Made by a program: the position numbers and the translations under genes. 64,000 nt of DNA from Eledone cirrhosa (lineage: Eukaryota): assembly GCA_964016885.1 (NCBI GenBank), contig OZ024741.1, positions 252,464,001 through 252,528,000 on the forward strand, written 5' to 3'. Below are positions 1,449-57,640 of the stretch, piece by piece. Positions within the stretch are counted from its first letter, which is position 1. Every line of letters begins with the position of its first letter. The notes under the pieces were generated by a model. The model worked only from the letters and a program-made list of their open reading frames with translations. It did not search any database and had not been told where the DNA came from.

Positions 1449-3881
1449 CAATATTGTATTTGGTGGACTCTTCTCAAGGGTACCTGTGTCTATCCATTCA
1501 CTCTGGGATTCATACTGGGGGTAGAAATCTCCCTGACATTCTATATACTGGATGTTTCTATAATTCAAATCTGTAGAATACCTCACTGGGGTACCAGGAA
1601 CACTGCTGTTGCTGCTCTGACATGGTAAAGGTTGATCAATTCTGTTACATATAGCTGACCGATCAACACCTCTCCTAGTGGCCTTTGTAGATTGAGATTG
1701 ACCACTGCTACATTTAAAAATACACAGTGTGATGGACACTACAATGACCACAGCCACTATTACAGCTGCTACTATAATTATAATTAATATTGGTATATCA
1801 AATATTTTGTTCTTCTCTAACTGGACAGTGGTCATCTGTGGTGATGATGTCTTGTTAGTGACCTTTAGTGATAAAGACACAGTAGTTGTGGCTGACATCA
1901 CTGGGGTACCAGAATCCTTGACCACAAGTACCAGTTGATATGAGCCAGCTTCATTGAGATAAGGTGAACGTGAGAAAGACATTTGACCAGTAAAAGAGTT
2001 CAGTGTAAACAACTGTTTATTATTACCATCAAGTATTCCATATTTGAGGAAGGCATTTAAATGACTGTCTCTATCAGTGGCTTTAATCACAGTGATAGCA
2101 TTGGTACTTTGTGGATGGTAGTGGACATTGATATGGAATGGGTCAGTTGTAGGGTAGATAAAATATGGACTATTGTCATTTCTGTCTAAAACCTCAATAA
2201 CAACATTGGCTGTATTATTCAATGATGGTTGACCATTGTCTTTGACAAATACTACAAATTTATAAATGTCTTCTTCTTCTCTATCTAATGGTATGTTGCT
2301 GGTAATAAAACCATAGTCACTCACCTTAAATGGTATATTATTTCTGTCTTTACTTAATATTGAGTAAGTTAGTTGACCAGCACTTCCTAGGTCTAGGTCA
2401 GTGGCATTAATAAAACCTATAGGAAAGTTAGCTTTACCATTCTCATAAGTAAGGAAGTGGAATTTATCTTTGGTAAATTGTGGTTTCACATCATTTACAT
2501 CCATTACTTCAATAGAAATCTTTCTCTCTGCCTCTAAAGGAGGACTTCCATTGTCTTCACATACAATTTTTATGTTAAAATGGTCCAATATTTCTCTGTC
2601 AAGTGATTTTTTCAAAGTAATTTTATATTCCTTAGATTCTAAATGTGAGAGGACAACTTTATCATGTTTTAAATTACAAGTCACCTCTCCATTCTCTCCT
2701 GCATCATTGTCCACTACATTGACGTAAGCTATATAACTGCCCACTTCAGTTCCTTCATAAATTGCTGCTGTATCTTTCTTTAGTTCAGACACAAAATTTA
2801 TTCCAATTTTAGGAGCATGGTTCTCTTCATTAAGAATATTCACCCGTACAATGGCAAGGGAATTTAGTGGGGGATTTCCACCATCTTTTGCTTCTACATA
2901 CAACTTGAGAATGTTCTTTTTTTGTGATGTAAAATGTTTTTTTACAAATAATTCTCCTGTTTGACGGTTTATTTTAAAGTAACTACCAGTGCGCCCTGGA
3001 GTTTTTGAACTGATATAATAAGTAACTTGACCATTTTGTCCAGAATCTGGGTCTTTGGCTGTCAATGTCACAATAGGAATATCATTAGCCTGTGTATTTT
3101 TGATGGAAATATTGTAGATATGCTTTGAAAAAGCTGGTGAGTTATCATTAACATCAATTATTGTTATATGAACATGTAAAATTCCTTGTTTTGGAGGTTG
3201 TCCTCCATCTTGAGCTATCACTTCTAGATTGTAACTATCTTTTAGTTCCCTGTCTAGTTTGTCTCCCAGAACAATCCCTATTTTAGCTCCACCTGTGATA
3301 GTTTTCCTAACAGACAATATAAATGGTTCATTGAATTTTTTCTTCAATTTATATGTAACTTCAGAGTTCTCCATTCCAATATCCTTATCAATGGCATCTG
3401 GTATTAATCTTTCTGCTCCTTCCCGATCTTCTTCATTGAATAAAACTTTTACTTCAGTTTTAGGAAATTCAGGGCCGTGATCATTGATGTCTTGTATAAT
3501 GACTTTAACTTTTATGATTTTCAAAAATGTCTTCCGTTTATGTACAGCAACTTTGATGTATCTAAAACAATCTGATTCATATGTACATAGTTCCTCAGCA
3601 TCAAGTGTTTGTGTAGTGTACAATTTACCATCTTTTGTGACATTAAATAAGTGTGACTCTTCTGTCCATTGCTGTTGCATTTGGTTATATGTGATGAAGT
3701 TATTTTCTACAAGCGAGGCACTATTTTCCATCTGTGTGTCAGCAGCAATATCCCCAACAAATGTAAAGGGACTACTTTCTTCTTCTACATGGTAGCTCAG
3801 ATCAACACAGACACAACTATGTAGTAATAGACTGAGGACATTGGCAAGTAAGTATGTATTCCACACACAGTCTACTTCCAT
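1449..3881 (-). CDS. PCDH: Protocadherin copy 1, large exon (signal peptide, EC1-6, TM, proximal tail; 811 codons); terminal exon expected left of the window
   Basis: Cadherin motifs (LDRE, AxDxG, DxNDNxP), EC1 C-X5-C (CTYESDC), TM ILIIIIVAAVIVAVVIVVSI. ATG at 3881 (the ORF-track start at 3884 is GTG). Acceptor ttttcag, exon starts at 3914. Phase-0 donor TTG|GTAAGT at 1449/1448. Confidence 0.95.
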
Positions 3882-4725
3882 CACAGAATATTAAATCATA
3901 TCTTCTGATTTTATCTGAAAATACAGGAAAAAAAATATTTTCTTTTGAGATAATTCACTGAATATTTGTATTTATATAAACAACCCCTTGTTAAAATACA
4001 TTAAAAGATGCTAAGTAAAAATTTAACCATAGTATAATATAATGTAATAATGCTTAATATAGACATAAAATAGATCACATATCTGAAATATTAATGGTAG
4101 ATAAACCATGCCAACGAAACTCAAGCAGGTGTGAAACTTAACTGCACAATGTGTGGTAAGGCATCTAAGTCAGATCCATGTTTGATATGCCATCTAAGGC
4201 GGCATCAGCAACCCTAACTCCAATAACATAAGTTTGGAATTGTCTATATGTCTTTTTTTTTTCGTTCTAAGAAGTGACCATACTCAGACATGAGTAGGCT
4301 TTCCACTCTGTATGTCTGTATGCATGTCTCTGTATATATTTATGTAATCATGGATGGAATGATAGTTAAGGGATGAGACGATCTGCTTGACATGATTGAA
4401 AGAATATAGTCTGTCATGACAAAGAACTTCATGCACAAACTGAAAGTAGTTGAGAATATACTGAATAACACCATTTTTCTGTGATGAAAACTATCATAAA
4501 TTATTAGTCAATGTTTACTGTATATGTGTGTATGGGTAAGTGTATAATTTTGTGAAGGTATATAAGATGAATATATGTTGTGATAGGTAATTTAGAGGAT
4601 ACAATTTATATGATAAATGGAATACTTCAAGCATTTGTAGTGGATTAGTTGTTTTTTTTAAAATAAAATATATATATGAACTTCAATCTTTTCTTTTTCC
4701 ATATATTCATATCCGGTAAATTCAT

Positions 4726-4771
4726 GGGAGATAACTATATGTATAGTGTGTAGTTACACTAATTATCTCCC
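4726..4771. promoter_or_regulatory. Conserved 46-bp inverted motif GGGAGATAA-N28-TTAT(C/G)TCCC in intron 2; also at 13858-13903, 23666-23711, 33141-33186, 42745-42790, 54380-54425
   Basis: Same length in all six copies, with arms conserved and spacer divergent. Function is inferred. Confidence 0.5.
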
Positions 4772-4971
4772 TTAATCTAACATAGCTTTCTAATCTATCA
4801 TCTTTTATATAGATTCGCCAGAAATTGTGGGTTGTAATAATGAATTTAACACTATAAATAAACCTTGGCTGTTTAAAGATAAATAATTAAACAGTTTCAG
4901 ATTTCCATTTTTAAAATCAGATTCAAAGAAACGAAGATGAATACTAAATAACGATGTAAGTGTTTGTGGTA

Positions 4972-5245
4972 TTGTGTGATAAATTACAGTATGTCTGGTA
5001 TTACATCATATATTAAGAGAAAGAACATCTCTTAATGTGATATTGTGAGTACAGTATGTCTGGATATCACAACATATGTTAAGAGATGCTACATAATATA
5101 TATCAATATGATATTGTTATAGGTACAGTATGTCTGGATATCACATTATATATCAAGAGATGTAACATAGTATATGGCAATGTGATATTTTGTTATAATG
5201 TATAGTATATCTAGATATCACAACATATATTAAAGGAAAGAACAT
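4972..5245. repeat. About four tandem copies of a ~60-bp unit (tgtgatattg...tatgtctggatatcaca)
   Basis: Direct repeats visible. Copies 2-6 carry a single unit at the equivalent position. Confidence 0.7.
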
Positions 5246-5400
5246 AATATATGTGAGAGTGCCGATATGTTGTTGGTCTGTATTGATACTCTTCTACATT
5301 AAGTTAAAATCATTTAATCTGGCATTTAAGAAATTAATTAATTTTATATATTAATAAAATTTCAAATTTTAAAAGTTATCCAGATGATATGAAAACTTAC

Positions 5401-5547
5401 CAAAAGTGGGAAATATAAGACATCCAAACTGAATGAGAAAACTTTTTTAAGTTGAACATTTCAAGTCATCTTATTTTGATAACAACAGAAGAATCTATCA
5501 GTTGTCCCCTGTATACAATAGTAATAGACCTTCCATCAAATGTGACC
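5401..5547 (-). other. PCDH copy 1 putative 5'-UTR exon 2
   Basis: tattttag acceptor and TTG|GTAAGT donor, both conserved in all six copies. Confidence 0.7.
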
Positions 5548-7318: not shown

Positions 7319-7740
7319 CTCCATTGTCTCATCCATAATCTATGTCTGTATATGATACTCTGTGTTAGTGTGTGGTAGAGTGTGATAGTGTCTCTATGGT
7401 AGTAGTAGAGAGAGGGATCACAAGATGTAACTACTACTACTGCTGTTGTTACTGCTTTTGTCGTTATTGTTGCTGTTGGTATTGTTGTTGTTATTGCTGC
7501 TGTTGTTACTGATTCAGTTGTTATTGCTGCTGTTGTTGTTTTTCTACTGTTCTTCTTATTATTAATGTTGTTATTGCTACTATTGTTACTGCTGCTGTTG
7601 TTATAGATACTGTTGTTACTGCTGCTGTTGTTACAGATACTGTTGTTGCTGCTGCTGTTATTATTGCTGTGTTGTTACTGTTGTTTTTGTTATTACTGCT
7701 GCTGTTTCCCTGCTGCAGCAGTCTACTACACACACACACA
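7319..7740 (-). other. PCDH copy 1 putative leader exon 1 (5' boundary uncertain), with degenerate CAG/CAA tract ~7430-7720
   Basis: Donor GAG|GTAAGT at 7319/7318 preceded by ATGGATGAGACAATGGAG, conserved in all six copies. Confidence 0.6.
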
Positions 7741-8589: not shown

Positions 8590-8613
8590 TTATTTTTTAA
8601 TTCTTGTTGGTAA
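8590..8613 (-). CDS. PCDH: PCDH copy 2 terminal coding exon LPTRIKK*
   Basis: Acceptor gttttctctgttccag|TTA CCA ACA AGA ATT AAA AAA TAA. Phase 0 matches the donor at 10528. Confidence 0.8.
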   Translation of the reverse strand, partial: LPTRIKK

Positions 8614-8805
8614 CTGGAACAGAGAAAACAACATATAAAAGTTGACAAAATATTACATTTCAGACACATCAAACATATGTCTGATCAATGTAATATGTCT
8701 GAAGGAATATGATAGACAATATGTCTGACCAATATATGAGAGACAGTCTTGAATATACTATATATGACAAACACTATAACTGGAGATGTGGCTTTATTTT
8801 TTAAC

Positions 8806-8817
8806 TCATGTTGGTAA
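8806..8817 (-). other. Duplicated proximal terminal exon of copy 2 encoding LPT*
   Basis: gttttctctgttctag|TTA CCA ACA TGA GTT AAA AAA TAA. Confidence 0.6.
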
Positions 8818-10527
8818 CTAGAACAGAGAAAACAATGCATATATATCAATAAATCGTTGAATAAAACATTTTATGTGTAACTGGTTGGGAGGACTCCTCA
8901 GTCATTTGATGGGATATCTTGTATTTGTGCTATAGAGAAAGCACCCAGAACAATCTGGAAGTTGTTTAGTGATAGGAAGGGCATCAGCTGTTAAAAGCCA
9001 TGGTATAAATATGTTGGAAGAAAACATCTGTTCTGTCATGTGTATGGCAACATCTTTAGCATTGGTGACATGATAAAATACACACAGAACACTCTGTAAA
9101 ATGGTTTATTATGGGAAGGGTATCCAGCCATAATAATCTCATCAAGCCAATGATCAAGAGGTCTCCTCAGTTGTGCCAAAGACATAACGTGTATGATCAT
9201 GATGAATGTATGACAGATAATATGTCTGAGCAATGAATGACAAACATAAAATATTTGGTCAATGTAGGAGAGGCAATATATCTGATCAATGTGTAACAAT
9301 GAAAATATCTGGCCAATATATGATTTTCATATCTCACCAATATATATGAAAGAAAATATGTTTGACCAATGTATGACAGACAATATGTCTGACTAAATTA
9401 TGAATTATAACATATCTGATAAATGAATGACAGATAATAACCAACGTATGACATATCTAAATTAGAATACTAAACAGTGACGACCTACATATTTTTATAA
9501 ATATTTGAGATCATTGAATATATTATAAAGTGGATTATGGGACATGAACTTGACCACTACTCTGGAAAATCATCAAAACCGTTCAGGAAAATCATTATTA
9601 AAACTCTTAAAATTATCTCTTTTACAATTCCCATTATTCTTTTCAAAAACAATATTATCAACTCTACATTCATCAGATCATCAAACTATGGTAACACACT
9701 TTACAGTGTCTGATAGGACAAACTTTGAACAAAGCATTTGATTGGTCAGATTTGCGAGTTAGCTGCAGACTATCCCTTCTTAATGAAAATGACACTCCCA
9801 TCTGACTCATCTGAATATGAACCTATCCCAATCTCCTATGTCTTTGAACATTTTCTGGTACCTCAAAGCAATTGATTGGTCAGATTCTGCCAGTTAGCTG
9901 CAGACTATATTCTTTTCAATGAACATGACTCATTTTTGACTCGTCTGACTCATCTGACTCATCTGAATATGAGCCTATTCCAATCTCCTGTGTTAGTATC
10001 TCCTGCTACATAGATCAAGAAAAATGTCTTATACTTGACCTCCATTACAGAAATAGTCTTACACTCTATCTTCACTAGAATATTATGAAATACCCATACA
10101 GTTCAGTCGAACTATAGATTTCCCCCGAAATAGTCTTACATGTTATCTACTCTGTAAATATTTTCTGAATCAATTTTCCACTCCATTTCTACAAAATATT
10201 TGGTAAAAAATAATCTTACACTAGAAATATTTTAAGAATTATTCTTTTGCTCTTCTTCACTACAAATGTTTTTAAAAATAGCTTTACACACAAATGAATA
10301 AGACATAAAAAAAATTGAAGGTTGTTACAAAACTAGAGACTCATGATACCTCATGAATTTCCATTAATGGTATTATGTGGTGATGCTGGCAATGATGATG
10401 ACAAGGTGAAGGATGACAAGCAGGAGGAGGCTACATGTGAAATGGGGGAAACTGATGATTATCAATGAATATATTTAGTGGTGATATATAAAGTTGATAA
10501 ATACATAATATGTAAAATATAACTTAC

Positions 10528-12954
10528 CAATATTGTATTTGGAGGACTCTTTTCCAGGGTACCTGTGTCTATCCATTCACTCTGGGATTCATACTGGGGG
10601 TAAAAATCTCCCTGACATTCTATATACTGGATGTTTCTATAATTCAAATCTGTAGAATACCTCACTGGGGTACCAGGAACACTGCTGTTGCTGCTCTGAC
10701 ATGGTAAAGGTTGATCAATTCTGTTACATATAGCTGACCGATCAACACCTCTCCTAGTGGTCTTTGTAGATTGAGACTGACCACTGCTACATTTCAAAAT
10801 ACACAGTGTGATGGACACTACAATGACCACAGCCACTATTACAGCTGCTACTATAATTATAATTAATATTGGTATATCAAATATTTTGTTCTTCTCTAAC
10901 TGGACAGTGGTCATCTGTGGTGATGATGTCTTGTTGGTGACCTTTAATGATAAAGACACAGTAGTTGTGGCTGACATCACTGGGGTACCAGAATCCTTGA
11001 CCACAAGTACCAGTTGATATGAGCCAGCTTCATTGAGATGAGGTGGACGTGAGAAAGACATTTGACCAGTAAAAGAGTTCAGTGTAAACAACTGTTTATT
11101 ATTACCATCAAGTATTCCATATTTGAGGAAGGCATTTAAATGACTGTCTCTATCAGTGGCTTTAATCACAGTGATGGCATTGGTACTTTGTGGATGGTAG
11201 TGGACATTGATATGGAACGGGTCAGTTGTAGGGTAGATAAAATATGGACTATTGTCATTTCTGTCTAAAACCTCAATAACAACATTGGCTGTATTATTCA
11301 ATGATGGTTGACCATTGTCTTTGACAAATACTACAAATTTATACATGTCTTCTTCTTCTCTATCTAATGGTATGTTACTGGTAATAAAACCATAGTCACT
11401 CACCTTAAATGGTATATTATTTCTGTCTTTACTTAATATTGAGTAAGTTAGTTGACCAGCACTTTCTAGGTCTGGGTCAGTGGCATTTATAAAACCTATA
11501 GGAAAGTTAGCTTTACCATTCTCATAAGTAAGGAAGTGGAATTTATCTTTGGTAAATTGTGGTTTCACATCATTTACATCCATTACTTCAATAGAAATGT
11601 TTCTCTCTGTCTTTAAAGGAGGATTTCCATTGTCTTCACATACAATTTTTATATTAAAATGGTCCAACGTTTCTCTGTCAAGTGATTTTTTCAAAGTAAT
11701 TTTATATTCCTTTGATTCTAAATGTGAGAGGACAACTTTATCATGTTTTAAATTACAAGTCACCTCTCCATTCTCTCCTACATCATTGTCCACTACATTG
11801 ACATAAGCTATATAACTGCCCTCTTCAGTTCCTTCATAAATTGTTGCTGTATCCTTCTTTAGTTCAGACACAAAATTCATATCAATTTCTGGGGCATGGT
11901 TCTCTTCATTAAGAATATTTACTCTTACAATGGCAAAGGAATTTAGTGAGGGATTCCCACCATCTTTGGCTTCTACATACATCTTTAGAATATTCTTTTT
12001 TTGTAATGTAAAGTGTTTTTTCACAAACAGTTCGCCTGTTTGATCATCCAGTTTGAAGTAACGTCTTGTGCGTTCTGGTGTTTCTGAACTAAAATAATAA
12101 GAAACTTGACCATTCTGTCCAGAATCTGGATCTTTGGCTGACAATGTCACAATAGGAATATCGTCAGCCTGTGTATTTTTGATGGAAATATTGTAGATAT
12201 GCTTTGAAAAAGCTGGTGAGTTATCATTAACATCAATTATTGTTATATGAACATGTAAAATTCCCTGTTTTGGAGGTTGTCCTCCATCTTTAGCTATCAC
12301 TTCTAGATTGTAACTATCTTTTAGTTCCCTGTCTAACTTGTCTCCCAGAATAATTCCTATTTTAGATCTACCAGTAATAGTTTTTTTAACAGACAATATA
12401 AATGGTTCATTGAATTTTTTCTTTAATTTATATGTAACTTCTGAATTTTCCATTCCAATATCTTTATCAATGGCATCTGGTATTAATCTTTCTGCTCCTT
12501 CCCGATCTTCTTCATTGAATAAAATTTTTACTTCAGTTTTAGGAAATTCAGGGCTGTGATCATTGATGTCTTGTATAATAACTTTAACTTTTATAATTTT
12601 CAAAAATGTCTTCCTTTTGTGTACAGCAACTTTGATGTATCTAAAACAATCTGATTCATATGTACACAGTTCCTCAGCATCAAGTGTTTGTGTAGTGTAA
12701 AGTTTACCATCTTTTGTGACATTAAACAAAGAATCTGTTCTTTGTCGCTGTATTTGGTTATATGTGATGAAATTATTTTCTACAAGTGAGGCACTATTCT
12801 CCATCTGTGTGTCAGCAGCAATATCCCCAACAAATGTAAAGGGACTACTTTCTTCTTCTACATGGTAGCTCAGATCAACACAGACACAACTGTGTAGTAA
12901 TAGACTGAGGACATTGGCAAGTAAGTATGTATTCCACACACAGTCTACTTCCAT
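10528..12954 (-). CDS. PCDH: Protocadherin copy 2, large exon (809 codons)
   Basis: Same motifs as copy 1. Exon starts at 12987; donor at 10528/10527. Confidence 0.95.
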
Positions 12955-14574
12955 CACAGAATATTAAATCATATCTTCTCTTTTTATCTGAAATTACAGG
13001 ATATTGATTACAGGAAATTGATTACAAATGTAATAATTTATGTTAACATAATATGGCTAAAATAAATAATTTATGTTAATATAATAAGGGTAATTATAAT
13101 ATTGAATTTAAACATATATATGTTTTTATACTTTTACAAGTTTATATCATTAGACATAAGCCATACTAGGCAACTACCTACACTGTCCAATATTCATATT
13201 TTAAATCAGGATTTTGTAAAGTGTTTGGTGAAAGAAGGGTAACTAAGCACAGAAACGTTGACAAACACAGGATCAAGAGCATTCTTCAGATGTGTCAAAG
13301 GCATGACAATGTACCCAATTCTGGTACCATGATGAAATGCACCCAGTCCACTCTGTAGATTATGGGAATGTACGTAGGAGTGATGTGGCCCTAGGTAAGT
13401 CAGAGAGGTTAGTAGCTGCAATTAATTAGTTTTTTTGTCTATGACAACCTATCCAAACTTTGTGAAAGAGTGAGTGTGTGGTGATAGACAGACAGTTTAG
13501 GAAATTATTTTTCTGATATCAGAATTGAATATATATATATATATATAAAGTGTGTGTGTGTCTCAAGGATGAATTGGATATATCTGAAAATAAATTGATA
13601 AAAAACCTTTCTGATGATTCACCATAAATGAGTCACCTTTTTTAGTGTGTCAAAGTGTGTTGGTATTTTATATGGAATCAGTGTTTAGTAAGTTGTGTAA
13701 TAATAAAATGAATGTAAGTTATTTATAGATAATACAAATGATACAATTTATCATGTTATAAATAAAATATCTTTCAGCAAGTTTGTTAAGAAATGAAAAA
13801 ATATATAGAAGTATTAGATAATTTTCGAGAGGTTTTGATAAATGTTTAGGTATTCATGGGAGATAACTACGTGTAAGCTGTATAGAGATTATAATTATGT
13901 CCCTTCTAAATGAAATTATTTCGTCTTTCAGACTTAAGTATCTTGTATTTATGTGATTAGTTCTACATGTTACGGATATTTTAGTTCATAATGAAAAACT
14001 TTCACATTTTAAATAGACCTTGGGTGACTAAATTGAAAAAAAATTCCTATTTATTAAAAAAAAACAGATTCAGAGAAACTTAGATATTTTTCGTTTTTGA
14101 AATTGTATTGCAAAATTCTTAATGCAAATCCGTGTGTTGAAACAGATACTGTTGTACTTTGTGAGGGTGATGTTGCCAATAAAAATACATTCATTAGTTG
14201 AGTGTTGCTTCAGTCTTTATTATTATTAATCACATAATTAGGGTGATGGATTTATAGAATTCTTAGAGTATCAGGCACAATTCTTTGAGGATATTTAGTT
14301 ATGGACTTTTACGTGAAGTACCAGTCAAGCACAGGTAGAGATATAATCGACTTGTGATATTGTGTGATAGCATGGTGTATGTCCAGATATCACATCATAT
14401 AAATGCATTATCAAATAAATGATACTATTCAAAACAAGGTTTAAAATAGTTAATTAGATTTCAATTTAATTTAACAATATCAATACATTTTCAACAATAT
14501 TAAAAAAAAAATCCTTGATATCAATTCTTGATAATTTCTCACTAAATGATTCATCAGAAATATGTAAAACTTAC

Positions 14575-14743
14575 CAAAAGTAGGAATAATATAACATCCA
14601 AGCTTAAAGAGAGAACTTCTTTAAGGTAACAATTTCAAGTCATCCCATTATGATGACAATAGAAAAACCTGTTAGTTGTCCCCTGTATCTAATAGCAACA
14701 GACCTAGTCATCAATATATTGGTCCATTCCATCAGATATGATC
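14575..14743 (-). other. PCDH copy 2 putative 5'-UTR exon 2 (169 nt)
   Basis: Conserved AG and GTAAGT boundaries. Confidence 0.7.
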
Positions 14744-15380
14744 CTAAAATATATGGCAATATAATAACAATATTGAAATACTGTAAAGAAAGGAGAGAGA
14801 AATAATTTTTGCTATATAATATATTTCTAAGAGTTATGACTTAAGAAACATTGGAAAAACATTGTAATTTAGAGTGTAGTTATCCCAACATAAATGTCCA
14901 AAGAAAGGAGAAAGAAATCATTTTTACTGCAATGTTTAGTAACAAATTATCTTCTATTACAACCTTGTTGAAAATTTATACATTCTATTCTAAACACTAA
15001 ATATTAATGATTCTGTTGTTCCATGTTATATAAATAAGAGTTTCATGATCTTGATGTTTATATAAAAAAGTTTAAATAGATTTCTGACTGGCATAGAAGT
15101 GTTGGAAAAATGTACATTCTGTAAGAATTCTCTTCTTCCATGTTATGTAAATGGGAGATGAATGATGTTAGTGAAATGTTATATATAGTTAAGTTTTAAA
15201 ATATTTCTCAAGAATATAGCTATATTCAAAGTATGTACAGCCTATACTACACATTAAGCTGTAAATATACAATGTCTATCTATTACTAATATGTAAATAT
15301 ATGAATTGTATAATATCATAAACCTATAAGTAATGGGAGAGTTATGTATATCTATGTATACATATACATACATAATATAT

Positions 15381-15654
15381 CATTTCATTTCATTTCATTT
15401 TACGTCCACTTTTCCCTGCTTGCAAGGGTGGGACGGGAACTGATTGTGGCTTGATTTCTACAGCTGGATGCCCTTCCTAACACCAACCTCATTTACAGTG
15501 AGTGGTGGATGCTTTTTTGCCGTGGCACATCCACGACCACTTTGCAGTGGAATGATAGGAACCCCAGTCCCTATCATCTCATTTCTACAGCTGAGTAAAC
15601 TGGAGCAATGTGAAATAAAGTGTCTTGCTCAAGGAAACAACACATCACCCGGTC

Positions 15655-15657
<3 letters not shown>
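15381..15657 (-). mobile_element. CORE-type SINE with RTE-like 3' tail; longer orthologous copies at 25720-26040 and 44806-45123
   Basis: CCTTGAGCAAGACACTT CORE-like motif and GGAAGGGCATCCAGCTGTAGAAA tail. tRNA-like A/B boxes are present in the longer copies. Confidence 0.7.
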
Positions 15658-15705
<48 letters not shown>

Positions 15706-17693: not shown

Positions 17694-17717
17694 TTATTTT
17701 TTGATTCTTGTTGGTAA
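17694..17717 (-). CDS. PCDH: PCDH copy 3 terminal coding exon LPTRIKK*
   Basis: ctctattccag acceptor; synonymous ATC for Ile. Confidence 0.8.
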   Translation of the reverse strand, partial: LPTRIKK

Positions 17718-38027: not shown

Positions 38028-38051
38028 TTATTTTTTAATTCGTGTTGGTAA
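38028..38051 (-). CDS. PCDH: PCDH copy 5 terminal coding exon LPTRIKK*
   Basis: Same acceptor and phase as the other copies. Confidence 0.8.
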   Translation of the reverse strand, partial: LPTRIKK

Positions 38052-41515: not shown

Positions 41516-43929
41516 CACAGAATATTAAATCATATCTTCTGTTTTCACCTGAAATTACAGGAGAACATATAAAATTTCCATTGAATGTCTGAGATTACAG
41601 TAACAAACATTTGGAAAATGCATAAAAACATGAAATAAATATATCATTTTATATCATATGTGTAATGATGCCTAGATTTTAATGTTGAACATTTATATTG
41701 AAAGTTTAAAATTCCAGAAATCAATATTTAGAAAATTGACAAATAATATATAATATATAATTTCTTCTATTATATATCAAAATTATCATTTCAATAGTGA
41801 ATTTAGACATATGTAATTATTTTTTATACTTTCATTGGTTGAAATCCTTTGACTGTAGCCATGCTATAGCTCTGCCTAGTGATTTGTCAATGATGTAAGC
41901 CTTTCTTTGACACAATTTATTTTTCCAAGTTTGGAATTTTTAAAGTGTTTGGTGAAAGAAGAGTGTTTAACAACAGAAAATTTGTTAAACAAAAGATCAA
42001 AAGGATTTTTCAGACGTGTCAAATAGATGACAATCTTCAAAGTGCTAGTGCTATGATGAAATGCACCCATTCTACTCTGTAGATTTTGGAAATTCATATA
42101 GGTGTGATATAGCTCTAGACATGTCTGGGAGGTCACTAGCTCCAACTAATTACTTAGTCTATGATGAACTCTTGATAGCAGAGCAAACAGAAATTAAATG
42201 ATGAAGAAAGCGAGAGAAAATTATCTTTTTCAAATTAAAAGTGAATATATAGTCTGTCTCAAAGATGAACTTGATACATCTGAGAATAAATGTATAAGCA
42301 CTATTCTGATGATTCATTATAAATGAGTTACCATTTATAGTATGTCTATGTGTTTGTTGGTATTTTATATGGAATTGGTGTTTAGTATGTAATATAACAA
42401 TAAAATGCACGTAAGTTATTTATAGATAATACTGATCATAGAATATTTTTATGTGATAAATAGAATATCTTGCAGGGTATTCGAAACGAAAATATATATT
42501 AATTTGGAAAAGTAGATATATTTTAATTATGTCTCATATAAAATAATATTACTGGCCTTCCGCAAAATACATATAGTTAGCACCCCAAACGTAAAATCGG
42601 GATTATACTAAGGTATATTCTAATGTTTGTTGAGTGAGATGGAAACCAGTCAGAGTAAAGCTTAAACTTTCTCTGTTAATGTATTGAATATATTAAAGTA
42701 ATAGATATTTTTGGAGAAGTCTTGATAAACGTTACAGTATGCATGGGAGATAACTACCCGTACAGTGTGAAGACATTGTAATTATGTCCCTTATTTCATA
42801 ACAGGCGTCTATCTCCTGATACTAATGAAACTATTTCGCCATTGTTTAGATTAGACTGAAGTATCCTGTATGCATGTGATCAGTTCTACATGTTACTGAT
42901 ATTTAGGTACATAATAAAGAGTTACACATTTTAAATGGACCTTGAGTGACTAAGTTAAAAAAGTAAAACATTCATATTTAATTTAAAAAAAAAAACTGAT
43001 ACAGAGAAACAGATATATTTCGTTTTGTATTTGATTTGCAAAGTTCTTGATGCAAGATCGTATGTTGAAACATATATTTATGTACCTTGTGAGTGCCATG
43101 TTGCCAATTAAAACACCTGCACTGGTTTTATTATTAATTATATACTAATGATAGTGGATTTGTGGAATTGTTGAAGTAACAGACACAATACTTTGAGGCA
43201 TTTAGTTGTGGCCTTTTTCATAAAGTACCAGTGAAGTACTGATGTCGATATAATCGACTTTTCCTTCCCCCAAATTGTTAGCCTTATGCCTCACTTATAA
43301 TCCATTATGAATCAGGTAATTTGTCCATCCACCATTTGATTAATCAACCCATTAGTTAATTAATTGTTAAATATCTTTATCAATAGGGTTTTACTCTCTG
43401 CATTATTAAATATTATAATATATACAAGTATGATATTAATGGAGGGGTGTTTTATGTGAGATAACACTTCATATGAGGGAAAAACCATAATACAAGTGAA
43501 TGTGATATTGTGTGACAGCATGATGTATGTCATGATATCACATCTTATAAATGCAGTATCAAATGTATGATACTATTCAAAATAAGATTTAAAAGAGTTA
43601 ATTATATTAAATTTAACAATATCAATCAATTTTTAACAATACTTCCATGCTTCCCGAAATTCGCCAACTCTACACCTGATATTTCCCTCCATATACACAT
43701 ATGCATGTGTGTGTGTGTTTGTCTGTAGGTATATCATGACTCATACACTGTTCACTTTCCTGCCATTTGTACATTATTCTATGTATTATACTTGCAGCTT
43801 TCATGAGTTGTAGTGCACCTGAGCACTGTGCACAATAATTTTCACTATTATTATTATTAAGAAAGAAACTTTATATAGATTATTGATAGTTTCTCAATAA
43901 ATGCCCCATCAGAAACAAGTAAAACTTAC

Positions 43930-44098
43930 CAAAAGTAGGTATGATACAAAATCCACGCTGAAAGATAGGAATTCTTTAAGATAAAAATGTTAAGTCATCC
44001 CATTTTGATGACAACAGAAGCATCTATCAGTTGTTCCCTGTATCTAATAACAACAGACCAGGTCATCAATATATTGGTCCCTTCCATCAGATATTATC
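43930..44098 (-). other. PCDH copy 5 putative 5'-UTR exon 2
   Basis: Conserved splice sites; 169 nt. Confidence 0.7.
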
Positions 44099-45984
44099 CT
44101 AAAATATATTGAAATATAACAACAATATTGAAATACTGTAAAGAAAGGACAGATAATAAATTTTGTAGCAATATATTTTAATAAACCTTCTATGATGAAC
44201 ATGTTAAAAATTATACAGTCTATATACTAAACACTAAATTATAATAATTCTGTTTCTTGGTGTTATATAAATGAGAGATGTATGATGATATTGGTGAATT
44301 GAATAGTTGAGTTTGAATAGATTTCTCTTTAATATAGTTATATTAAAAATATGTACACCCTTTACTAATGCACACCCTTTCCTGTAAATGCAGAGAATTT
44401 CATTTACAGGAAACTGTAAATATTGAGAGTCACACATTCCTATTTTTTTTAATGCTATCACAAATGCAAAATATAAAAAGAAAATTTCATCGAGAAATGT
44501 CTCTGAAAGAAACATTTGTAAAATATTTTCATCCGTACTCAAAATTTCTAACTAAATTTTCTAAATACTAGATACTACACATTAGGCTGTAAATACACAT
44601 TAGGCTGTAAATATACAATGTCTATCTATTACTAATATGTAAATATATGAAGTGCATTGTATCATAAACTTATAATAATGAGAAAATCAAATATATATAT
44701 CCTATGCTATCCTGGATGATAGACATTAAACAATAATGATGATGATGATTATATATATAGAGAGAGAAAAATCAAATGTGTCGGGCGAAAGGACAATATA
44801 TATCAATCATCATCATTTTTTGTCCGCTTCTCCCTGCTTGCAAGGGTGGGACGGGAACTGATTCTGGCTTTATTTCTACAGTTGGATGCCCTTCCTAACA
44901 CCAACCTCATTTACAGTGAGTGCTGGGTGCTTTTTTGCCGTGGCACCTCCACGACCACTTTGCAGTGGAATGATAGAGACCCCAGTCCCGATCATCTCAT
45001 TTCTACAGCTGAGTAAACTGGAACAATGTGAAATAAAGTGTCTTGCTCAAGGAAAAAACACATCGCCCGGACTGAGAATTTAACTCACAACCTTTCGATT
45101 GCAGGGCCAATGCTCTAACCACTTATATGTATATATATATATATATATTGCTATTTATGTCAGAATTTTGATGAGAAAATTACATTGTATCACATCAATA
45201 TGTCTGCTGTTATTCACAAAATTCAGCACTGTTACTAAGAGAAGTTTATCTTTATTATTACTGTTAATATTATTATTGTTTGGTTGATTAATCTACACAG
45301 ACGCTAGAGAAACACTATCCATTTACCTTAATATATGCTGTCTTTAATAAGACACTAAAACATACAACATTTTAGATAATAAATCTCTCACAGAATCAGT
45401 CACGCAACAATGTCTGACAGAACAATAACAGCTATTCGGGATGATAGATTCATTAAATTGTCTTTCATTATTATGTTAACATATTTCTATGGTGTTCTTA
45501 AAATACTATTTAAACATTATGACATGATAAAATTTATATATCAAATATTGCATTAGAAATATTTCTGCTCAATATAAAATATGATTAGACTGTTTATAAT
45601 AAATAGAGAAATGAAATAATATAATTTAGTTAAATTGGAGAAGAGAGAGGATGTAAAGACAAAATGGAGATTTACTGTTAAATATGGCGTATAGTTACAA
45701 AATCTACACTTATAATTTTAATTACCAAACAATATAGTAAAATGAAACAATAATTATTAGCTATATTAATATATAGCTATTATATTTCTAACACTGAATT
45801 ATGAAATAGTGTAATAATAGGTTAGTATTTTATAATAAAAAGTATGTTATATGGGAAACATCAGTTGGTAGTATTTCTCAGTGCTAGAAATGGTCTTTTA
45901 TAAATATCTTAATTTCTTACATGTTATATTTTCACACATTATATCAAAGATGAAATATGTGAATAAAACATGATGTACACTTAC

Positions 45985-46245
45985 CTCCATTGTCTCATCC
46001 ATAATCTATGTCTGTGTATCATACTCTGTGTTAGTGTGTGTCTGTGGTAGTAGTAGAGAGAGAGGGTCCACAAGATGTAACTACTACTACTACTACTGTT
46101 GTTGTTGTTGTTTCTGCTGCTGTTGTTATTGCTAGTGTTGACAGTGTTGCTGCTGTTACTGCTGCTGTTTGTATTGTTGTTGTTATTGCTGCTGTTGTTA
46201 CTGCAGCTGTTGTTGTTATTCCTTCAGAAGCAGCCTACTGCACAT
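45985..46245 (-). other. PCDH copy 5 putative leader exon 1
   Basis: Donor at 45985/45984; uORF ATG at 46002. Confidence 0.6.
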
Positions 46246-49935: not shown

Positions 49936-49959
49936 TTATTTTTTAATTCGTGTTGATAA
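49936..49959 (-). CDS. PCDH: PCDH copy 6 terminal coding exon LSTRIKK*
   Basis: Same acceptor; Pro to Ser change. Confidence 0.78.
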   Translation of the reverse strand, partial: LSTRIKK

Positions 49960-50149
49960 CTGGAACAGAGAAAATACATAGAAATCAATAAAATATTTGA
50001 TTCCAGACACATCAAACATATCATGTCTGATATGTAATATGACTGAACAAATATGATAGACAATATGTCTGACCAAATATATAAGAGACAGTCTTGAATA
50101 TACTATGTATGACAAACAATATAACCAATTTCTTACAAACATTATGTCT

Positions 50150-50328
50150 AATTGGCAGTATCGGTAGAGGGTTGGACGCCATGCTTTGACGCATAGAGTT
50201 ACGGCCCTTGCCATTCTGAGTTCAAATCCCGCCGAGGTTAACTTTGCCTTTCATCCTTACGGGGTCGATAAAATAAAGTACCAGTAATGTACTGGATAAT
50301 TGCTGGCCTTGTGCCAAAAGTAGAAACA
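50150..50328 (+). mobile_element. tRNA-derived SINE with 9-bp TSD, private to copy 6
   Basis: A/B boxes; attatgtct duplicated at both ends; empty site in copies 4 and 5. Confidence 0.9.
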
Positions 50329-51113
50329 ATTATGTCTGACTATAAAATTATGACAAACAATATTTGACCAATGTGCAGCATATATTATGCCAGACCATTG
50401 TATGACATAATATGTATGACATGTTTTAATTATGACTGATGTATGAAAACTAATATATAATAGTCAGTATGATTGAACTATGTATAGCAGTAAAGATGTC
50501 TGATCTATGTTTGCAATACTGTACAGTGTGTGACAGAAAATATCTTTATCCAATCCAATACATGATAGACAATATGGCTGACCAAAATATGATAGTTATC
50601 ATGTGTAACAAAATATTTCACAGTATGTCTGAAGGAACGTATGACAAATACTGTCAGAATGATGTATGATAAAAGATTATGCTTAACCAATGTAGCATAG
50701 AGAATTAAAATGACCAATGTAGGACAGATAAACTGTCTGAGCAATGTAAAATGGTCATGTAGGTTTCATGGCAAATAGCACCCAGCCCATACTGTAAAGT
50801 AGTTCTGTAGGTCTCATGACAAAATCACCCACCCTACACTGTAAAGTGCTCATGTAGGTGTCACGACAAAAAACACGCAGTACTCTCTGTAAATGAGGTT
50901 GGCATTAGGAATGGCATCCAGCTGTAGAAACCAAGTTAAAATAAGCTCTGTATGAGCAAGGCCTAGTCACCTGACCTGGCACAACTTAAACAACAGCACA
51001 ACTTGCCCTAACCAATGCTAGCATGGAAAAATGGACATAAAACGGTGATGATAAATTATGATGAAATATATAATATACCAATATTGTACCAATATATATA
51101 AAATATAACTTAC

Positions 51114-53543
51114 CAATATTGTATTTGGAGGACTTTTCTCCAGGGTACCTGTGTCTATCCATTCACTCTGGGATTCATACTGGGGGTAGAAATCTCCCTG
51201 ACATTCTATATACTGGATGTTTCTATTATTTAAATCTGTAGAATACCTCACTGGGGTACCAGGAACACTGCTGTTGCTGCTCTGACATGGTAAAGGTTGA
51301 TCAATTCTGTTACATATAGCTGACTGATCAACACCTCTCCTAGTGGCCTTTGTAGATTGAGACTGACCACTCCTATATTTCAAAATACGCAGTGTGATGG
51401 ACACTACAATGACCACAGACACTATTACAGCTGCTACTATAATTATAATTAATATTGGTATATCAAATATTTTCTTCTTCTCTAACTGGACAGTGGTCAT
51501 CTGTGGTGATGTTTTGTTAGTGACTTTTAATGATAAAGACACAGTAGTTGTGGCTGACATAACTGGGGTACCAGAATCCTTGACCACAAGTACCAGTTGA
51601 TACGAGCCAGCTTCATTGAGATGAGGTGGACGTGAGAAAGACATTTGACCAGTAAAAGAGTTCAGTGTAAACAACTGTTTATTATTACCATCAAGTATTC
51701 CATATTTGAGGAAGGCATTTAAATGACTGTCCCTATCAGTGGCTTTAATCACAGTGATGGCATTGGTACTTTGTGGATGGTAGTGGACATTGATATGGAA
51801 TGGGTCAGTTGTAGGGTAGATAAAATATGGACTATTGTCATTTGTGTCTAAAACCTCAATAACAACATTGGCTGTATTATTCAATGATGGTTGACCATTG
51901 TCTTTGACAAATACTTCAAATTTATAGATGTCTTCTTCTTCTCTATCTAATGTTATGTTGCTGGTAATAAAACCATAGTCACTTATCTTAAATGGTATAT
52001 TATTTCTGTCTTTACTTAATATTGAGTAAGTTAGATGACCACCATCTCCTAGGTCTGGGTCAGTGGCATGAATAAAACCTATAGGAAAGTTAGCTTTATT
52101 ATTCTCATAAGTAAGGAAGTGGAATATATCTTTGGTAAATTGTGGTTTCACATCATTCACATCCATTACTTCAATAGAAATCTTTCTCTCTGTCTTTAAA
52201 GGAGGGCTTCCATTATCTTCACATACAAGTTTTATACTAAAATGGTCCAATGTTTCTCTATCTAGTGATTTCTTCAAAGTAATTATATATTCCTTGGATT
52301 TTAAATGTGAGAGGACAACTTTATCATGTTTTAAATTACAAGTCACCTCTCCATTCTCCCCTACATCATTGTCCACTACATTGACATAAGCTATATAACT
52401 GCCCACTTCAGTTCCTTCATAAATTGCTGCTGTATCCTTCTTTAGTTCAGACACAAAATTTATATCAATTTCTGGGGCATGGTTCTCTTCATTAAGAATA
52501 TTTACTCTTACAATGGCAAAGGAATTTAATGGAGGATTCCCACCATCTTTGGCTTCTACATATAACTTGAGAATTTTCTTTTTTTGTGATGTAAAGTGTT
52601 TTTTTACAAACAATTCTCCTGTCTGGTGGTTTATTTTAAAGTAGCCTCTTGTGCGCCCTGGAGTTTTTGAACTGATATAGTAAGTAACTTGACCATTCTG
52701 TCCTGAATCTGGGTTTTTGGCAGACAATGTCACAATAGGAATATCATTAGTATGTGTATTTTTGATGGAAATATTGTAAATATGTTTTGAAAAAACTGGT
52801 GAGTTATCATTAACATCAATTATTGTTATATGAACATGTAAAATTCCTTGTTTTGGAGGTTGTCCTCCATCTTTAGCTATCACTTCTAGATTGTAACTAT
52901 CTTTTAGTTCCCTGTCTAGTTTGTCTCCCAGAACAATTCCTATTTTAGCTCCACCTGTGATAGTTTTCCTAACAGACAATATAAATGGTTCATTGAATTT
53001 TTTCTTCATTTTATATGTAACTTCAGAGTTCTCCATTCCAATATCTTTATCAATGGCATCTGGTATTAATCTTTCTGCTCCTTCACTATCACGCTCATAA
53101 AATGTGATATTTATTTCTCTCTGTGGAAACTCTGGGCTATGGTCATTGATGTCTTGTATAATGATTTTAACTTTTATGATCTTCAAAAATGTCTTCCGTT
53201 TATGTACAGCAACTTTGATGTATCTAAAGCAATCTGACTCATATGTACACAGTTCCTCAGCATCAAGTGTTTGTGTAGTGTACAGTTTACCATCTTTTGT
53301 GACATTAAATAAGTGTGAAGAATCTGATCTTTGTCGCTGTATTTGGTTATATGTGATGAAGTTATTTTCTACAAGTGAGGCATTATTCTCCATCTGTGTG
53401 TCAGCAGCAATATCCCCAACAAATGTAAAGGGACTACTTTCTTCTTCTACATGGTAGCTCAGATCAACACAGACACAACTGTGTAGTAATAGACTGAGGA
53501 CATTGGCAAGTAAGTATGTATTCCACAAACAGTCTACTTCCAT
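51114..53543 (-). CDS. PCDH: Protocadherin copy 6, large exon (810 codons)
   Basis: Exon starts at 53576; donor at 51114/51113. Confidence 0.95.
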
Positions 53544-54474
53544 CACAAAATATTAAACCAAATCTTCTGTTTTAACCTGAAATTACAGGAGAAAATATGA
53601 AATTTCTATTAGAATTATTCACTCAATAATTGAGATTATTTGGAAAATTTATAAAAATCATCATCATAAACGATTTAACGTCCATCTTCCTTGCTAAATA
53701 TAAAATAAAAATATCATTTTTATATCATATGTGTAATGATACCTAAATTAAAATTTTGAAATTTCAATAATAAAGATTTGGAAAATTGATACAAATGTAA
53801 AATATATAATCTTTTAATCATATATCTGAATTATCATTTCAACAGAAAATTTGTTAAACAAAGGATCAAAATAAATATTCAGATGTGTCAAATAGATGAT
53901 AATGTTTTAAGTGCTAGTGCCATGATGAAATTCACCCAGTCTATTCTTTACATTTTGGAAATGCGTGTAGGTGTGATATAGCTCTAGACCTGACTGGGAG
54001 GTCAAACTCTTGATAACAGAGCAAACAGATATTTAATGATGATGAAGGTGAGAGAAAATTATCTTTTTGATATTAAATGTGAATCTATAGAGTCTGTCTC
54101 AAACATTAACTTGATATATCTGAGAATATATGTATAAACACTATTCTGATAATTTATTATAAATGAGCTTCTATTTATAGTATGTCTATGTGTTTGTTGG
54201 TATTTCATATGGAATTAGTGTTTAGTAAGAAATATAATAAAATGTTTATTTGATAATACAAATGGTACAATTTGTCATGTTATAAGTAAAACATCTTGCA
54301 GCGTATTTGTTAAAAATAACAAACATATAAAAGTAATAAGTATTTTTCTAGAAGTCTTCATATACGTTACAGTATTCATGGGAGATAACTAGCCGTAAAG
54401 TGTGTAGACATTGTAATTATGTCCCTTGTTTCATTATGGGCGTTTGGCTTCAACATTTTATCTCCTGATATTAA

Positions 54475-54693
54475 TGATTTCTAGTATAGGCACAAGACCA
54501 GTAATTTTGGGGGAGAGGATAGTCAATTAAATCGAACCCAGTACGTCACTGGTACTTTATTTTATCGACCCTGTAAGGATGAAAGGCAAAGTTAAAGTCG
54601 GCGAGATTTGATTTCAGACCGTAAAGGACTATAACTCTATCCTGCAAAGCATAGTTTCCAACTCTCTACTGATACTGCCAATCCACAGAACTC
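54475..54693 (-). mobile_element. tRNA-derived SINE with 14-bp TSD
   Basis: tctcctgatattaa at 54461-54474 and 54694-54707. Confidence 0.88.
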
Positions 54694-55221
54694 TCTCCTG
54701 ATATTAAATAAACTATTTCGCCATTGTGCTGATCGATTACTGATGTCGATATAATCGACTTTTCCTTCCCCTAAATTGCTAGCCTTGTGCCTCAATTAAA
54801 ATCCGTTATGAATCAGGTAATTTGATTAATCAACCCATTAGATTATTAATTCTTAAATATCTTTTATCAATAACCTTTTGCTCTCTGCATCTTATCAAAT
54901 ATTATAATATATACAAGTATGATATTAATGGAGGAGATGTTTTATGTGAGATAACACTTCATAAAAGGGAAAAACCATAATACAAGTGAATGTGATATTG
55001 TGTGATAGCATGATGTATATCAGGATATCACATCTTATAAATGCAGTATAAAATACATGATACTATTTAAAGCAAGTTTTAAAAGTGTTACTTAAATTTC
55101 AAAGCAATCTAACAATATAAATATCAACAATATAAATTTCAACATTATTTAAAAAATAAACTTGATAAAGATTCTTGATAATTTTTCACTAAATGTCTCA
55201 TCAGAAATAAGTAAAACTTAC

Positions 55222-55391
55222 CAAAAGTAGGAATGATACAAAATCCCCGCTGAAATATAGAACTTCTCTAATATAACAATTTCAAGTCATCCCAATTTGA
55301 TGACAACTGAAGAATCTATCAGTTGTTCCCCTATATCTAATAGCAACAGACCTGATCATGAATATATTGGCCCATTCCATCAGATATGATC
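55222..55391 (-). other. PCDH copy 6 putative 5'-UTR exon 2 (170 nt)
   Basis: Conserved splice sites. Confidence 0.7.
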
Positions 55392-56010
55392 CTAAAATAT
55401 ATGGTAATATAATAACAATATTGAATTACAGTAAAGAAAAGAGACAGAAATAATTTTTACTGCAATGTGTTAGTAACAAATTCTCTTCTATCACAACCAT
55501 GTTGAAAGCTTTTATATTTTATCCTATACACTAAACTGTAACAATTCTGTTTTCCCATATCTAATGAAAATATACACATCCTTCACAGTACAATAAGCAA
55601 TTATATAAATAGGATATAAATGATGTTGTGGCTGAAATGTTATTTATAGTTTAAATAAATTTCTCAATAATATAGCCATATTCAAAACATGTACACTCGG
55701 TACTAATGATAAACTGTAAATTTGAAATAAACAGTAAATGAAGTGTGTTTAATGTTCAGGAAAGTGTACAATATAAAGTACAACATAAAAAGGAAAATTC
55801 ATTGAGAAATATTTCTGATTGAAAGAAAAATTTGAAAAATATTTTCATCTGGACTCAAAACTACTCACTAAATATTATAAATACATTATACTACACATTA
55901 AGCTGTAAATATACAATGTCTATCTATTACTATTATATAAATATATGAACAGTATTATACCATAAACTTATAATAATGGGGAAATCACATATATATATAT
56001 ATATACATAT

Positions 56011-56354
56011 CAGTGGCGAAGGGTAACCTGGAAAGCAGGGCATGCAGTCCAATCGCCATGGCAGAAAGTGGCGCTGTGCAGCCTTACCCCGCCCCCAATT
56101 CCCTCTAAATGACCATCCCGGTCAAAGCCGCATGTAGTGTTATCTAGTGTGTGTATGTGTGTTATCTTTTTATGTGTCTATGATTTAGCAAGCAGCTAAA
56201 ATTCTGCTTGCTTGAACCGACGCTGTCGTGTGTTTGTGTGTATGTGTTATCTTTTTATGTGTCTACGGTTTAGCAAGCAGCCAAAATTCTGCTTGCTTCA
56301 ACTGATGCAATGATCAACTCAAGATTCTATAATGCATGCACGCACCCTTCGCCC

Positions 56355-56357
<3 letters not shown>
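56011..56357. mobile_element. 347-bp non-autonomous DNA transposon (hAT-like termini) in (TA)n
   Basis: 14-bp TIR CAGTGGCGAAGGGT / ACCCTTCGCCCCTG with one mismatch; internal tandem duplication. Confidence 0.75.
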
Positions 56358-56387
<30 letters not shown>

Positions 56388-56395
<8 letters not shown>

Positions 56396-57000
56396 CGTAA
56401 AATAAGAAAATTATAAAATTAACTTACTTACTAAAATATCACTTCCAACTAATTAGTTTCTGGAATGGAATATATATATTTTCCGAAGAAAACAGAGAAT
56501 CATTCCGTCGTCAGGTAAGACTATTCTCATCTAAGTATCCAGGCAAAGCGTAGACTCTGGAAACTTATTAAAAAATAATTCAGTGGATAGAAAATATCAA
56601 AACGTGGACTGAATTCCTAGCCATTGAGAAAATCACTGCCTCTGCGTCGGTGGCAAATTCAAAAAGAATCAATCACGTGACATCGAGGTCAATCAGTGGA
56701 AAGTGGTTTGCTAATAAGACAGCGGCCTGCCTGCTACCATAGCAGCAGGCGTGGCCAATATTGCTCGACAAATAATTTGGAGATAATTATAAAGAATTAA
56801 TATCTAGTAACATATATATACATACAGATGCATATCAATGCTAGCAAATATATAGGTTTTGTCTTAGTAACTCTGTGGTTCAATGCATGGGGTTTCAGAA
56901 CAATAATATGAGAGACGTAAAATAATATATTTTAGTAAGTAAGTTAATTTTATAATTTTCTTATTTTACGTCTCTCATATTATTGTTCTGCAACCCCATG
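56388..57000. mobile_element. Probable Penelope-like remnant with direct and inverted terminal repeats
   Basis: atgagagacgtaaaataa is direct at ~56388 and ~56908 and inverted at ~56961-56978. Degenerate CCGAAGA...GAAAC core at 56483-56564. Confidence 0.55.
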
Positions 57001-57288
57001 AATTAGATTAATATTAAATTAATATATAATATAATATAACTAAAATAATAGTTATTAGCTATATTAAAATATAACTAGTATATTTTATAACACTGAATTA
57101 TGAAATAGTGTAATAATAGGTTAATATTTCTTACTAACATCTATGTTATATGTGGAACAGCAGTTGATGGTATTTCTCAGAGATAGAAATGGTCTTTTAT
57201 AAATCTCTTTTGATAATTTTTTACATGTTATATTTTCACACATTATATCAAAGATGAAATATGTGAATAAAACAAAATGTACACTTAC

Positions 57289-57640
57289 CTCCATTGTCTC
57301 ATCCATAATCTATGTCTGTGTATGATACTCTGTGTTAGTGTGTGGTAGAGTGTGATAGTGTCTCTATGGTAGTAGTAGAGAGAGGGATCACAAGATGTAA
57401 CTACTACTACTGCTATTGTTGCTGTTCTTATTGCTAATGTTAGCAGTGATGCTGTTGTTATTGCTGCTGTTGTTACTGCTGCCGTTGTTATTGTTGATGT
57501 TGTTATTACTGCTGTTGTTACTGCTAGTGTTGTTAGTGCTGCTGTTGTTATTGTTGTTACTACTAGTGTTGTTATTACTGCTGTTGTTGTTGCTGTTCTT
57601 GCTGCTGCTGCTGTGATTCCTTCATCAGCAGTCTACTGTA
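57289..57640 (-). other. PCDH copy 6 putative leader exon 1
   Basis: Donor at 57289/57288; uORF ATG at 57306. Confidence 0.55.

Follow-up and report, generated by a model that had tools for sequence, protein, structure and literature searches.

Coupled residues at a predicted dimer interface, shared among octopod species, in a tandem protocadherin array of Eledone cirrhosa

Coleoid cephalopods carry tandem sub-arrays of protocadherin genes, which Albertin et al. 2022 (PMC9068888; here and below, statements on cited papers refer to the sections available) describe as head-to-tail, multi-exonic whole-gene duplicates in one orientation that are homogenised by gene conversion and lack shared final exons. 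The available text makes no functional claim for the coleoid proteins, and nothing is known about the adhesion specificity of cephalopod protocadherins according to that of PMC6339937. In vertebrate alpha and gamma protocadherins, specificity is set by correlated residue pairs across the contacts of extracellular cadherin (EC) repeats 1 with 4 and 2 with 3 (PMC5106212). We analysed a stretch of 64,000 nt from Eledone cirrhosa (contig OZ024741.1, positions 252,464,001 to 252,528,000; "the window"), which contains six protocadherin copies. With six EC repeats, a transmembrane (TM) segment, a cytoplasmic tail and octopod protocadherins as closest relatives, the array appears to belong to the coleoid sub-arrays. 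Its copies are head-to-tail whole genes with their own final exons (five of six; the sixth lies past the window edge), and it appears to have been homogenised by gene conversion. No architectural difference from the coleoid sub-arrays was found; this architecture is already known, and what is added here are paired interface residues that are shared across species.

Orthologous arrays are present in Octopus vulgaris (CAI9733532-CAI9733544) and Argonauta hians (GAB1610339-GAB1610346), each under consecutive accessions. Their products are 82% and 81% identical to the window copies, respectively (range 81-83%), and the annotated proteins have the same start methionine and end with LPTRIKK or LPTRLKK. 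We aligned 32 units, i.e. 6 from the window, 12 from O. vulgaris, 7 from O. sinensis, and 7 from Argonauta, leaving out the fragments P0130 and P0133, which start after EC3. A core set of 20 units excludes the 7 O. sinensis units, which are near-allelic to O. vulgaris, as well as 3 O. vulgaris models that are partial and 2 edge genes whose EC1 is divergent. Each species was monophyletic in all five domain trees (EC1, EC2, EC3, EC4, and EC5-tail), and therefore the copies are not one-to-one orthologues. In the core set, the same pair of alternative residues recurs in two or more species at 18 positions, all of which lie in EC1-4, compared with 44 species-fixed differences in EC1-4 and 63 elsewhere (Fisher p = 8e-7). 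Elements on the interface face, which were set by AlphaFold2 (AF2) secondary structure together with the face rule of PMC7082078 and cover 39% of EC1-4, hold 17 of the 18 shared sites versus 10 of the 44 fixed differences (p = 2e-7).

Seventeen sites are polymorphic in all three species, and 108 pairs of them are at least 30 residues apart. Eleven pairs divide the window copies in the same way, and four of these are also concordant in O. vulgaris and Argonauta: residues 70, 72, and 74 with residue 360, and residue 198 with residue 293 (exact p values for coupling of 7.9e-5 and 1.6e-4). Among the 25 units from species other than O. sinensis, 72 and 360 are matched in 22 of 22 cases, with the Arg of copy 5 scored as non-acidic and one Glu set aside; 72 and 358 are matched in 21 of the 22 units that have both sites, and 198 and 293 in 23 of 24, the exception being a truncated model. 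The chemistry is complementary, i.e. basic EC1 residues occur with acidic EC4 residues, or Gln/Trp with Lys/Gly, and Arg198 occurs with Glu293, or Gly198 with Lys293. Pairs taken across the two modules agree in only 15-16 of 22-24 units, which is not significant. The EC1-EC4 and EC2-EC3 pairs assort independently of each other, and all four outer/inner combinations are present in each species. When a three-way module in EC2 is included, six codes are found in the six window copies, six in eight O. vulgaris units, and five in six Argonauta units. A previous sequence-only reading of the window had missed these coupled interface polymorphisms, its most informative feature.

In the antiparallel dimer of vertebrate delta-protocadherins, the CFG face of EC1 meets the ABED face of EC4, and the ABED face of EC2 meets the CFG face of EC3; the variable interfacial elements are the EC1 C-D, EC2 D-E, and EC3 C-D loops and the EC4 A strand (PMC7082078). 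The coupled pairs fall on exactly these elements, EC1 C-D with EC4 A and EC2 D-E with EC3 C-D, and such correlated pairs are expected of an antiparallel EC1-4 homophilic dimer. In beta isoforms, the EC3 Phe-X10-Phe loop wedges against the EC2 beta4-beta5 loop (PMC5001838), and in gamma-B7 the charge pair at position 41 forms an EC1:EC4 specificity bridge, E41:K338/R340 (PMC5106212). The EC1 segment of the window copies aligns to gamma-A9 positions ~38-45 and thus spans the position of the gamma-B7 bridge.

We consider it likely that the window contains tandem whole-gene duplicates, patchily converted, in which selected matched pairs across an antiparallel EC1:EC4/EC2:EC3 dimer give each copy a homophilic code; the binding itself we infer. 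Patchy conversion would keep the large exons alike, and selection would preserve the matched pairs that meet across the dimer. The copies, each predicted to be its own transcription unit, would form antiparallel trans homodimers in which paired residues touch, i.e. R70/R72 with E358/D360 or Q70/W72 with K358/G360 between EC1 and EC4, and R198 with E293 or G198 with K293 between EC2 and EC3, and mixed dimers would be weaker. Conversion would reshuffle the two pair modules and the three-way module of the EC2 A strand into up to ~12 codes, selection would remove mismatched recombinants and retain both forms, and paralog-specific recognition would result. More tentatively, it is possible that octopods independently evolved a modular combinatorial code for neuronal self-recognition, in which lock-and-key modules would be shuffled by conversion, their alleles would be held by balancing selection across genera against homogenisation of all other sequence, and copies of ~95% identity would be strictly self-binding.

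Several observations weigh against selected pairs of this kind. Copy 5 combines W72 with E358/R360, and R360 was coded as non-acidic post hoc, after copy 5 had been inspected; the truncated model P0127 combines R198 with K293. Bonferroni correction over 672 pairs raises the p values to ~0.05 and ~0.11. Only three lineages are represented, copies within a species are not independent, O. sinensis adds near-alleles of O. vulgaris, and the foreign sequences are predicted gene models at the protein level only. The ratio of nonsynonymous to synonymous differences (pN/pS) is <1 in every domain; blanket positive selection is thus unsupported. For the three-way module of the EC2 A strand, no partner site emerged. 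The nested pattern was not recovered in two other Argonauta sub-arrays scanned for covariation (20 and 10 proteins), where EC4 varies hardly at all and the strongest pairs are EC1-EC2, EC1-EC3, and EC2-EC3 blocks. The contacts were mapped at the level of loops from vertebrate structures of ~30% identity, without a dimer model. The AF2 monomer (mean predicted local distance difference test 74, predicted template modelling score 0.45) was used for secondary structure only. Its inter-domain arrangement is unreliable, with root-mean-square deviations of ~50 Å to EC1-4 structures and 4.5-6.9 Å to EC3-6 structures, and a complex prediction for two EC1-4 copies without alignment (score 0.00) speaks neither for nor against a dimer.

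The best-surviving alternative, which we nevertheless regard as improbable, is that the coupling is a neutral relic: block-wise copying and conversion of a few ancestral haplotypes would simply not yet have separated the paired sites. The small number of non-independent copies per species, the evident conversion, the modest corrected p values, and the failure to see the pattern in the two other sub-arrays would all fit. However, linkage does not decay with distance: residues 72 and 360, 288 residues apart, are perfectly linked, whereas 293 and 358, 65 residues apart, agree in 16 of 24 units. Sites between 198 and 293 split the copies in other ways, and residue 199 is fixed as A in O. vulgaris and as S in Argonauta, while the adjacent residue 198 stays G/R in both. 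The location of the shared sites on interface elements also argues against a relic, and in simulations of neutral patchwork conversion with 15 settings, nesting in three arrays arose with a probability of at most 3e-3. A second and still less probable alternative keeps the selected trans pairs but lets them merely tune affinity or homodimer stability, so that the copies cross-bind and have no distinct identities. The copies are 92-96% identical in protein sequence, and delta-protocadherins bind heterophilically to a substantial extent within a subfamily (PMC7082078). Yet stability alone would be served by fixing one form, whereas two forms per module persist in three lineages and the six window copies represent six different combinations.

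The coordinates are summarized in the table. The array consists of six long minus-strand open reading frames arranged head-to-tail, and the spacing of their start codons proposed in the sequence-only reading (9073, 9779, 9412, 9370, and 12028 bp) was reproduced exactly when recomputed from the large exons. Only five of the six genes that it had called complete are so, because the terminal exon of copy 1, predicted ~0.4 kb to the left of base 1, lies outside the window. In all six copies the large exon is open, encodes a signal peptide, six cadherin repeats, the TM segment, and ~90 cytoplasmic residues, begins with a 33-nt predicted untranslated leader, and is closed by a phase-0 GTAAGT donor. 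The Pfam matches of copy 4 comprise Cadherin_2 and five Cadherin stretches. Duplication during assembly was ruled out, as the copies differ by 4-8% in protein and by up to 70% in introns. No seventh unit was found up to base 64000, and therefore the array appears to end on the side of copy 6. A broken remnant of a reverse transcriptase of the long interspersed nuclear element (LINE) type, with a weak RVT_1 match (E 0.0037), lies at 59550-60760.

Table. Features of the protocadherin array in the window (EC, extracellular cadherin repeat; TM, transmembrane segment; UTR, untranslated region)
Feature	Position in the window	Strand	Details
Copy 1 large exon	1449..3914	minus	33 nt predicted UTR, ATG 3881, signal peptide, EC1-6, TM, most of tail
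Copy 1 exon 2, predicted untranslated, 28 nt	5401..5428	minus	
Copy 1 exon 1, predicted 3' part	7319..7430	minus	donor 7319; upstream ATG 7336
Copy 2	8590..16720	minus	terminal exon 8613-8590, large exon 12987-10528 (ATG 12954), exon 2 14602-14575, exon 1 donor 16610
Copy 3	17694..27010	minus	terminal exon 17717-17694, large exon 22766-20307 (ATG 22733), exon 2 24877-24850, exon 1 donor 26902
Copy 4	28681..36360	minus	terminal exon 28704-28681, large exon 32178-29719 (ATG 32145), exon 2 34372-34345, exon 1 donor 36252
Copy 5	38028..46090	minus	terminal exon 38051-38028, large exon 41548-39083 (ATG 41515), exon 2 43957-43930, exon 1 donor 45985
Copy 6 (5'-most, most divergent)	49936..57400	minus	terminal exon 49959-49936, large exon 53576-51114 (ATG 53543), exon 2 55249-55222, exon 1 donor 57289
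EC1 C-D loop dimorphic segment, residues 68-75	3657..3680	minus	copy 1 Q70/W72; copy 4 R70/R72 at 31930-31938
EC4 A strand dimorphic residues 358-360	2802..2810	minus	copy 1 K-I-G; copy 4 E-I-D at 31072-31080; covaries with EC1 C-D loop
EC2 D-E loop residue 198	3288..3290	minus	G in copies 1, 6; R in 2-5
EC3 C-D loop residue 293	3003..3005	minus	K in copies 1 and 6, E in copies 2-5; coupled to residue 198
EC2 A-to-B strand segment, residues 140-158	3408..3464	minus	three types: copies 1+2, 3+5, 4+6; similar types in O. vulgaris, Argonauta

The identical sixfold splice architecture of the sequence-only reading stands for the two small 5' exons, which have canonical sites in all six copies, but the terminal exon is seen in only five. 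The use of exons 1, 2, and 4 is a prediction from conservation and from the annotation of homologues. The small 5' exons are conserved inside introns that average only 43-58% identity. Exons 1 and 2 are predicted to be untranslated because an in-frame TAA precedes the large-exon ATG by two codons. As exon 2 also measures 28 nt in all six copies, the claim that all donors and acceptors are in phase 0 is incorrect. A fused gene model of O. vulgaris reads through a stretch that corresponds to exon 2 and to the beginning of the large exon, which suggests, as far as a predicted model allows, that exon 2 is kept in another genus. An in-frame N-terminal extension via the AG just after the ATG was rejected, as the upstream acceptor has a polypyrimidine tract and the homologues share the same methionine. 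In all copies, exon 1 (e.g. 36269-36252) contains two in-frame ATGs, both in a strong context. If exon 2 is included, the upstream reading frame (47-52 codons in copies 1-5) runs across the main ATG in a different frame, whereas that of copy 6 stops early; if exon 2 is skipped, the upstream frame is 13 codons long and terminates 9 nt short of the main ATG. Inclusion of exon 2 could act as a translational switch. The private promoters of the sequence-only reading are putative. Three short conserved blocks precede the exon 1 donor by 286-321 nt, and a scan of both strands for elements of the conserved sequence element (CSE)/CTCF type yielded no match to the query, a single CTCF-like consensus.

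The terminal exon is 24 nt long, in phase 0, and encodes seven residues and a stop, LPTRIKK (LSTRIKK in copy 6). In copies 2-6 it lies 1.0-2.6 kb downstream of the large exon, and its own AATAAA overlaps the stop in each case (5 of 5). Candidates for an alternative terminal exon near 800-860 and 9930-10005 were discarded, because they occur only in copies 1 and 2 and the homologues end with LPTRIKK. In copy 2 the terminal exon is duplicated; the additional, proximal version at 8817-8794 retains its acceptor but stops early (LPT-stop). In copies 4 and 5 (~29684 and ~39048) a short duplication repeats the donor motif of the large exon 35 nt downstream as a weaker GTAAAT.

The sequence-only reading had further proposed that splicing across neighbouring copies would be in frame; by extension, transcripts spliced in this way might diversify the products. 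The in-frame claim holds for the large-exon donors and terminal-exon acceptors, which are all in phase 0 and near-identical, but diversification is very improbable, as a single exon holds the whole ectodomain, each terminal exon has its own AATAAA, cephalopods lack shared final exons in the available text of PMC9068888, and the joins offer no protein payoff. A large exon joined to a neighbour's terminal exon would yield the same tail or one that differs by one residue, joined to the next large exon it would run into the in-frame TAA once seven residues had been added, and joined to the next copy via exon 2 it would gain an out-of-frame tail of 46 residues. Cross-copy splicing would therefore not diversify the ectodomain. 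A search of sequencing runs listed no RNA run with this sequence. Four runs mapped on copy 5 look like DNA contigs, with coverage by X1-X3 in each of the 30 bins, introns included, and therefore have no bearing on splicing; exon junctions had no match among the 15 of 232 joints listed, and the runs may stem from the same material as the assembly.

Whole-gene duplication with homogenisation, as proposed in the sequence-only reading, is supported, and both this and the absence of shared exons have already been published for coleoids (PMC9068888). Synonymous divergence is 0.17 in EC1, 0.18 in EC2, 0.29 in EC3, 0.10 in EC4, 0.04 in EC5, 0.06 in EC6, and 0.07 in the tail, i.e. it ranges from 0.02 to 0.07 from EC5 to the tail versus 0.17-0.29 in EC1-3. 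The last 1 kb of the large exon is 97.5% identical, in contrast to the introns, and the grouping by species in all trees is in agreement. TM and tail are indeed nearly invariant, with differences of 2.6% and 3.1%, respectively. The notion of a variable ectodomain is overstated, as divergence is 1.8% in EC6, 5.3% in EC1, 8.6% in EC2, and 10.9% in EC3. Other sub-arrays of Argonauta and Octopus have the same polarity (EC2/EC3 31-42% divergent, EC5/EC6 <2.5%). Ancestry is mosaic: the 104 informative sites show 20 different splits, 56% of site pairs are incompatible, and the splits are spatially clustered (p = 0.0002; 0.0014 thinned). Such conversion confounds the dating of "recent" expansions by sequence distance.

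The noncoding DNA is also mosaic. Intron 1 is 98% identical between copies 3 and 5, intron 3 95% between copies 4 and 5, and the end of exon 1 99% between copies 1 and 6, pointing to probable unequal crossing-over on top of conversion. The edge copy 6 (49936-58120 region) has 25 private residues versus 5-11 in the others. Five of the 25 affect positions with a conservation of at least 90% across 129 homologues, among them an Asp-to-Asn change in a calcium motif and a juxtamembrane Cys-to-Arg change, and ~480 bp are inserted directly upstream of exon 1. Judged from these changes, copy 6 is probably decaying or escaping conversion. The last-numbered genes of the orthologous arrays, P0129 (CAI9733544, O. 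vulgaris) and P0003 (GAB1610346, Argonauta), join a divergent signal peptide and EC1 to a homogenised EC2-tail, and both adjoin an orthologous, non-homogenised neighbour.

The expansion of coleoid protocadherins by tandem duplication, which the sequence-only reading had given as known, agrees with PMC9068888; the available text of that paper does not analyse the identity of the variable residues. A coupled code or an analysis of residue coupling was not found in the literature searched, including the available sections of PMC9068888, PMC9795677, PMC4978886, and PMC6339937, while supplements and earlier octopod studies could hold domain-level analyses of diversity. The coupled pairs are sequence evidence for the use of the antiparallel EC1-4 interface by octopod protocadherins, with paralog-specific codes. 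They bear on whether the large protocadherin expansion of cephalopods serves self-recognition as the vertebrate system does, and they single out four residues, together with natural isoform pairs, as targets for direct testing.

The best structural and sequence matches of the window copies are Xenopus pcdh8.1 and human PCDH10, and the same loops vary at the interface in delta-protocadherins (PMC7082078). In contrast to Pcdh-beta and delta-protocadherins, the window copies have four predicted exons and an octopod-specific tail, and identity is only ~30%. Vertebrate Pcdh-beta genes are likewise self-contained with a tail of their own. As in vertebrate Pcdh-alpha and gamma, a single large exon encodes the six EC repeats and the TM segment. 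Diversity is also concentrated in EC2/EC3 while EC5/EC6 are homogenised, which resembles alpha and gamma, whose synonymous divergence peaks in EC2/EC3 and is smallest in EC5/EC6 (PMC4978886). The analogy to the vertebrate constant exons drawn in the sequence-only reading is weak, as the large exon already encodes ~90 of the ~97 tail residues and leaves only seven to the terminal exon. Unlike alpha and gamma, the window copies have no shared constant exons but private terminal exons with their own AATAAA at the DNA level, they have two predicted untranslated 5' exons each, and they stem from an independent expansion. Isoform identity in the octopod arrays would reside in a reshuffled combination of short modules, whereas alpha and gamma have one-to-one orthologues kept across species.

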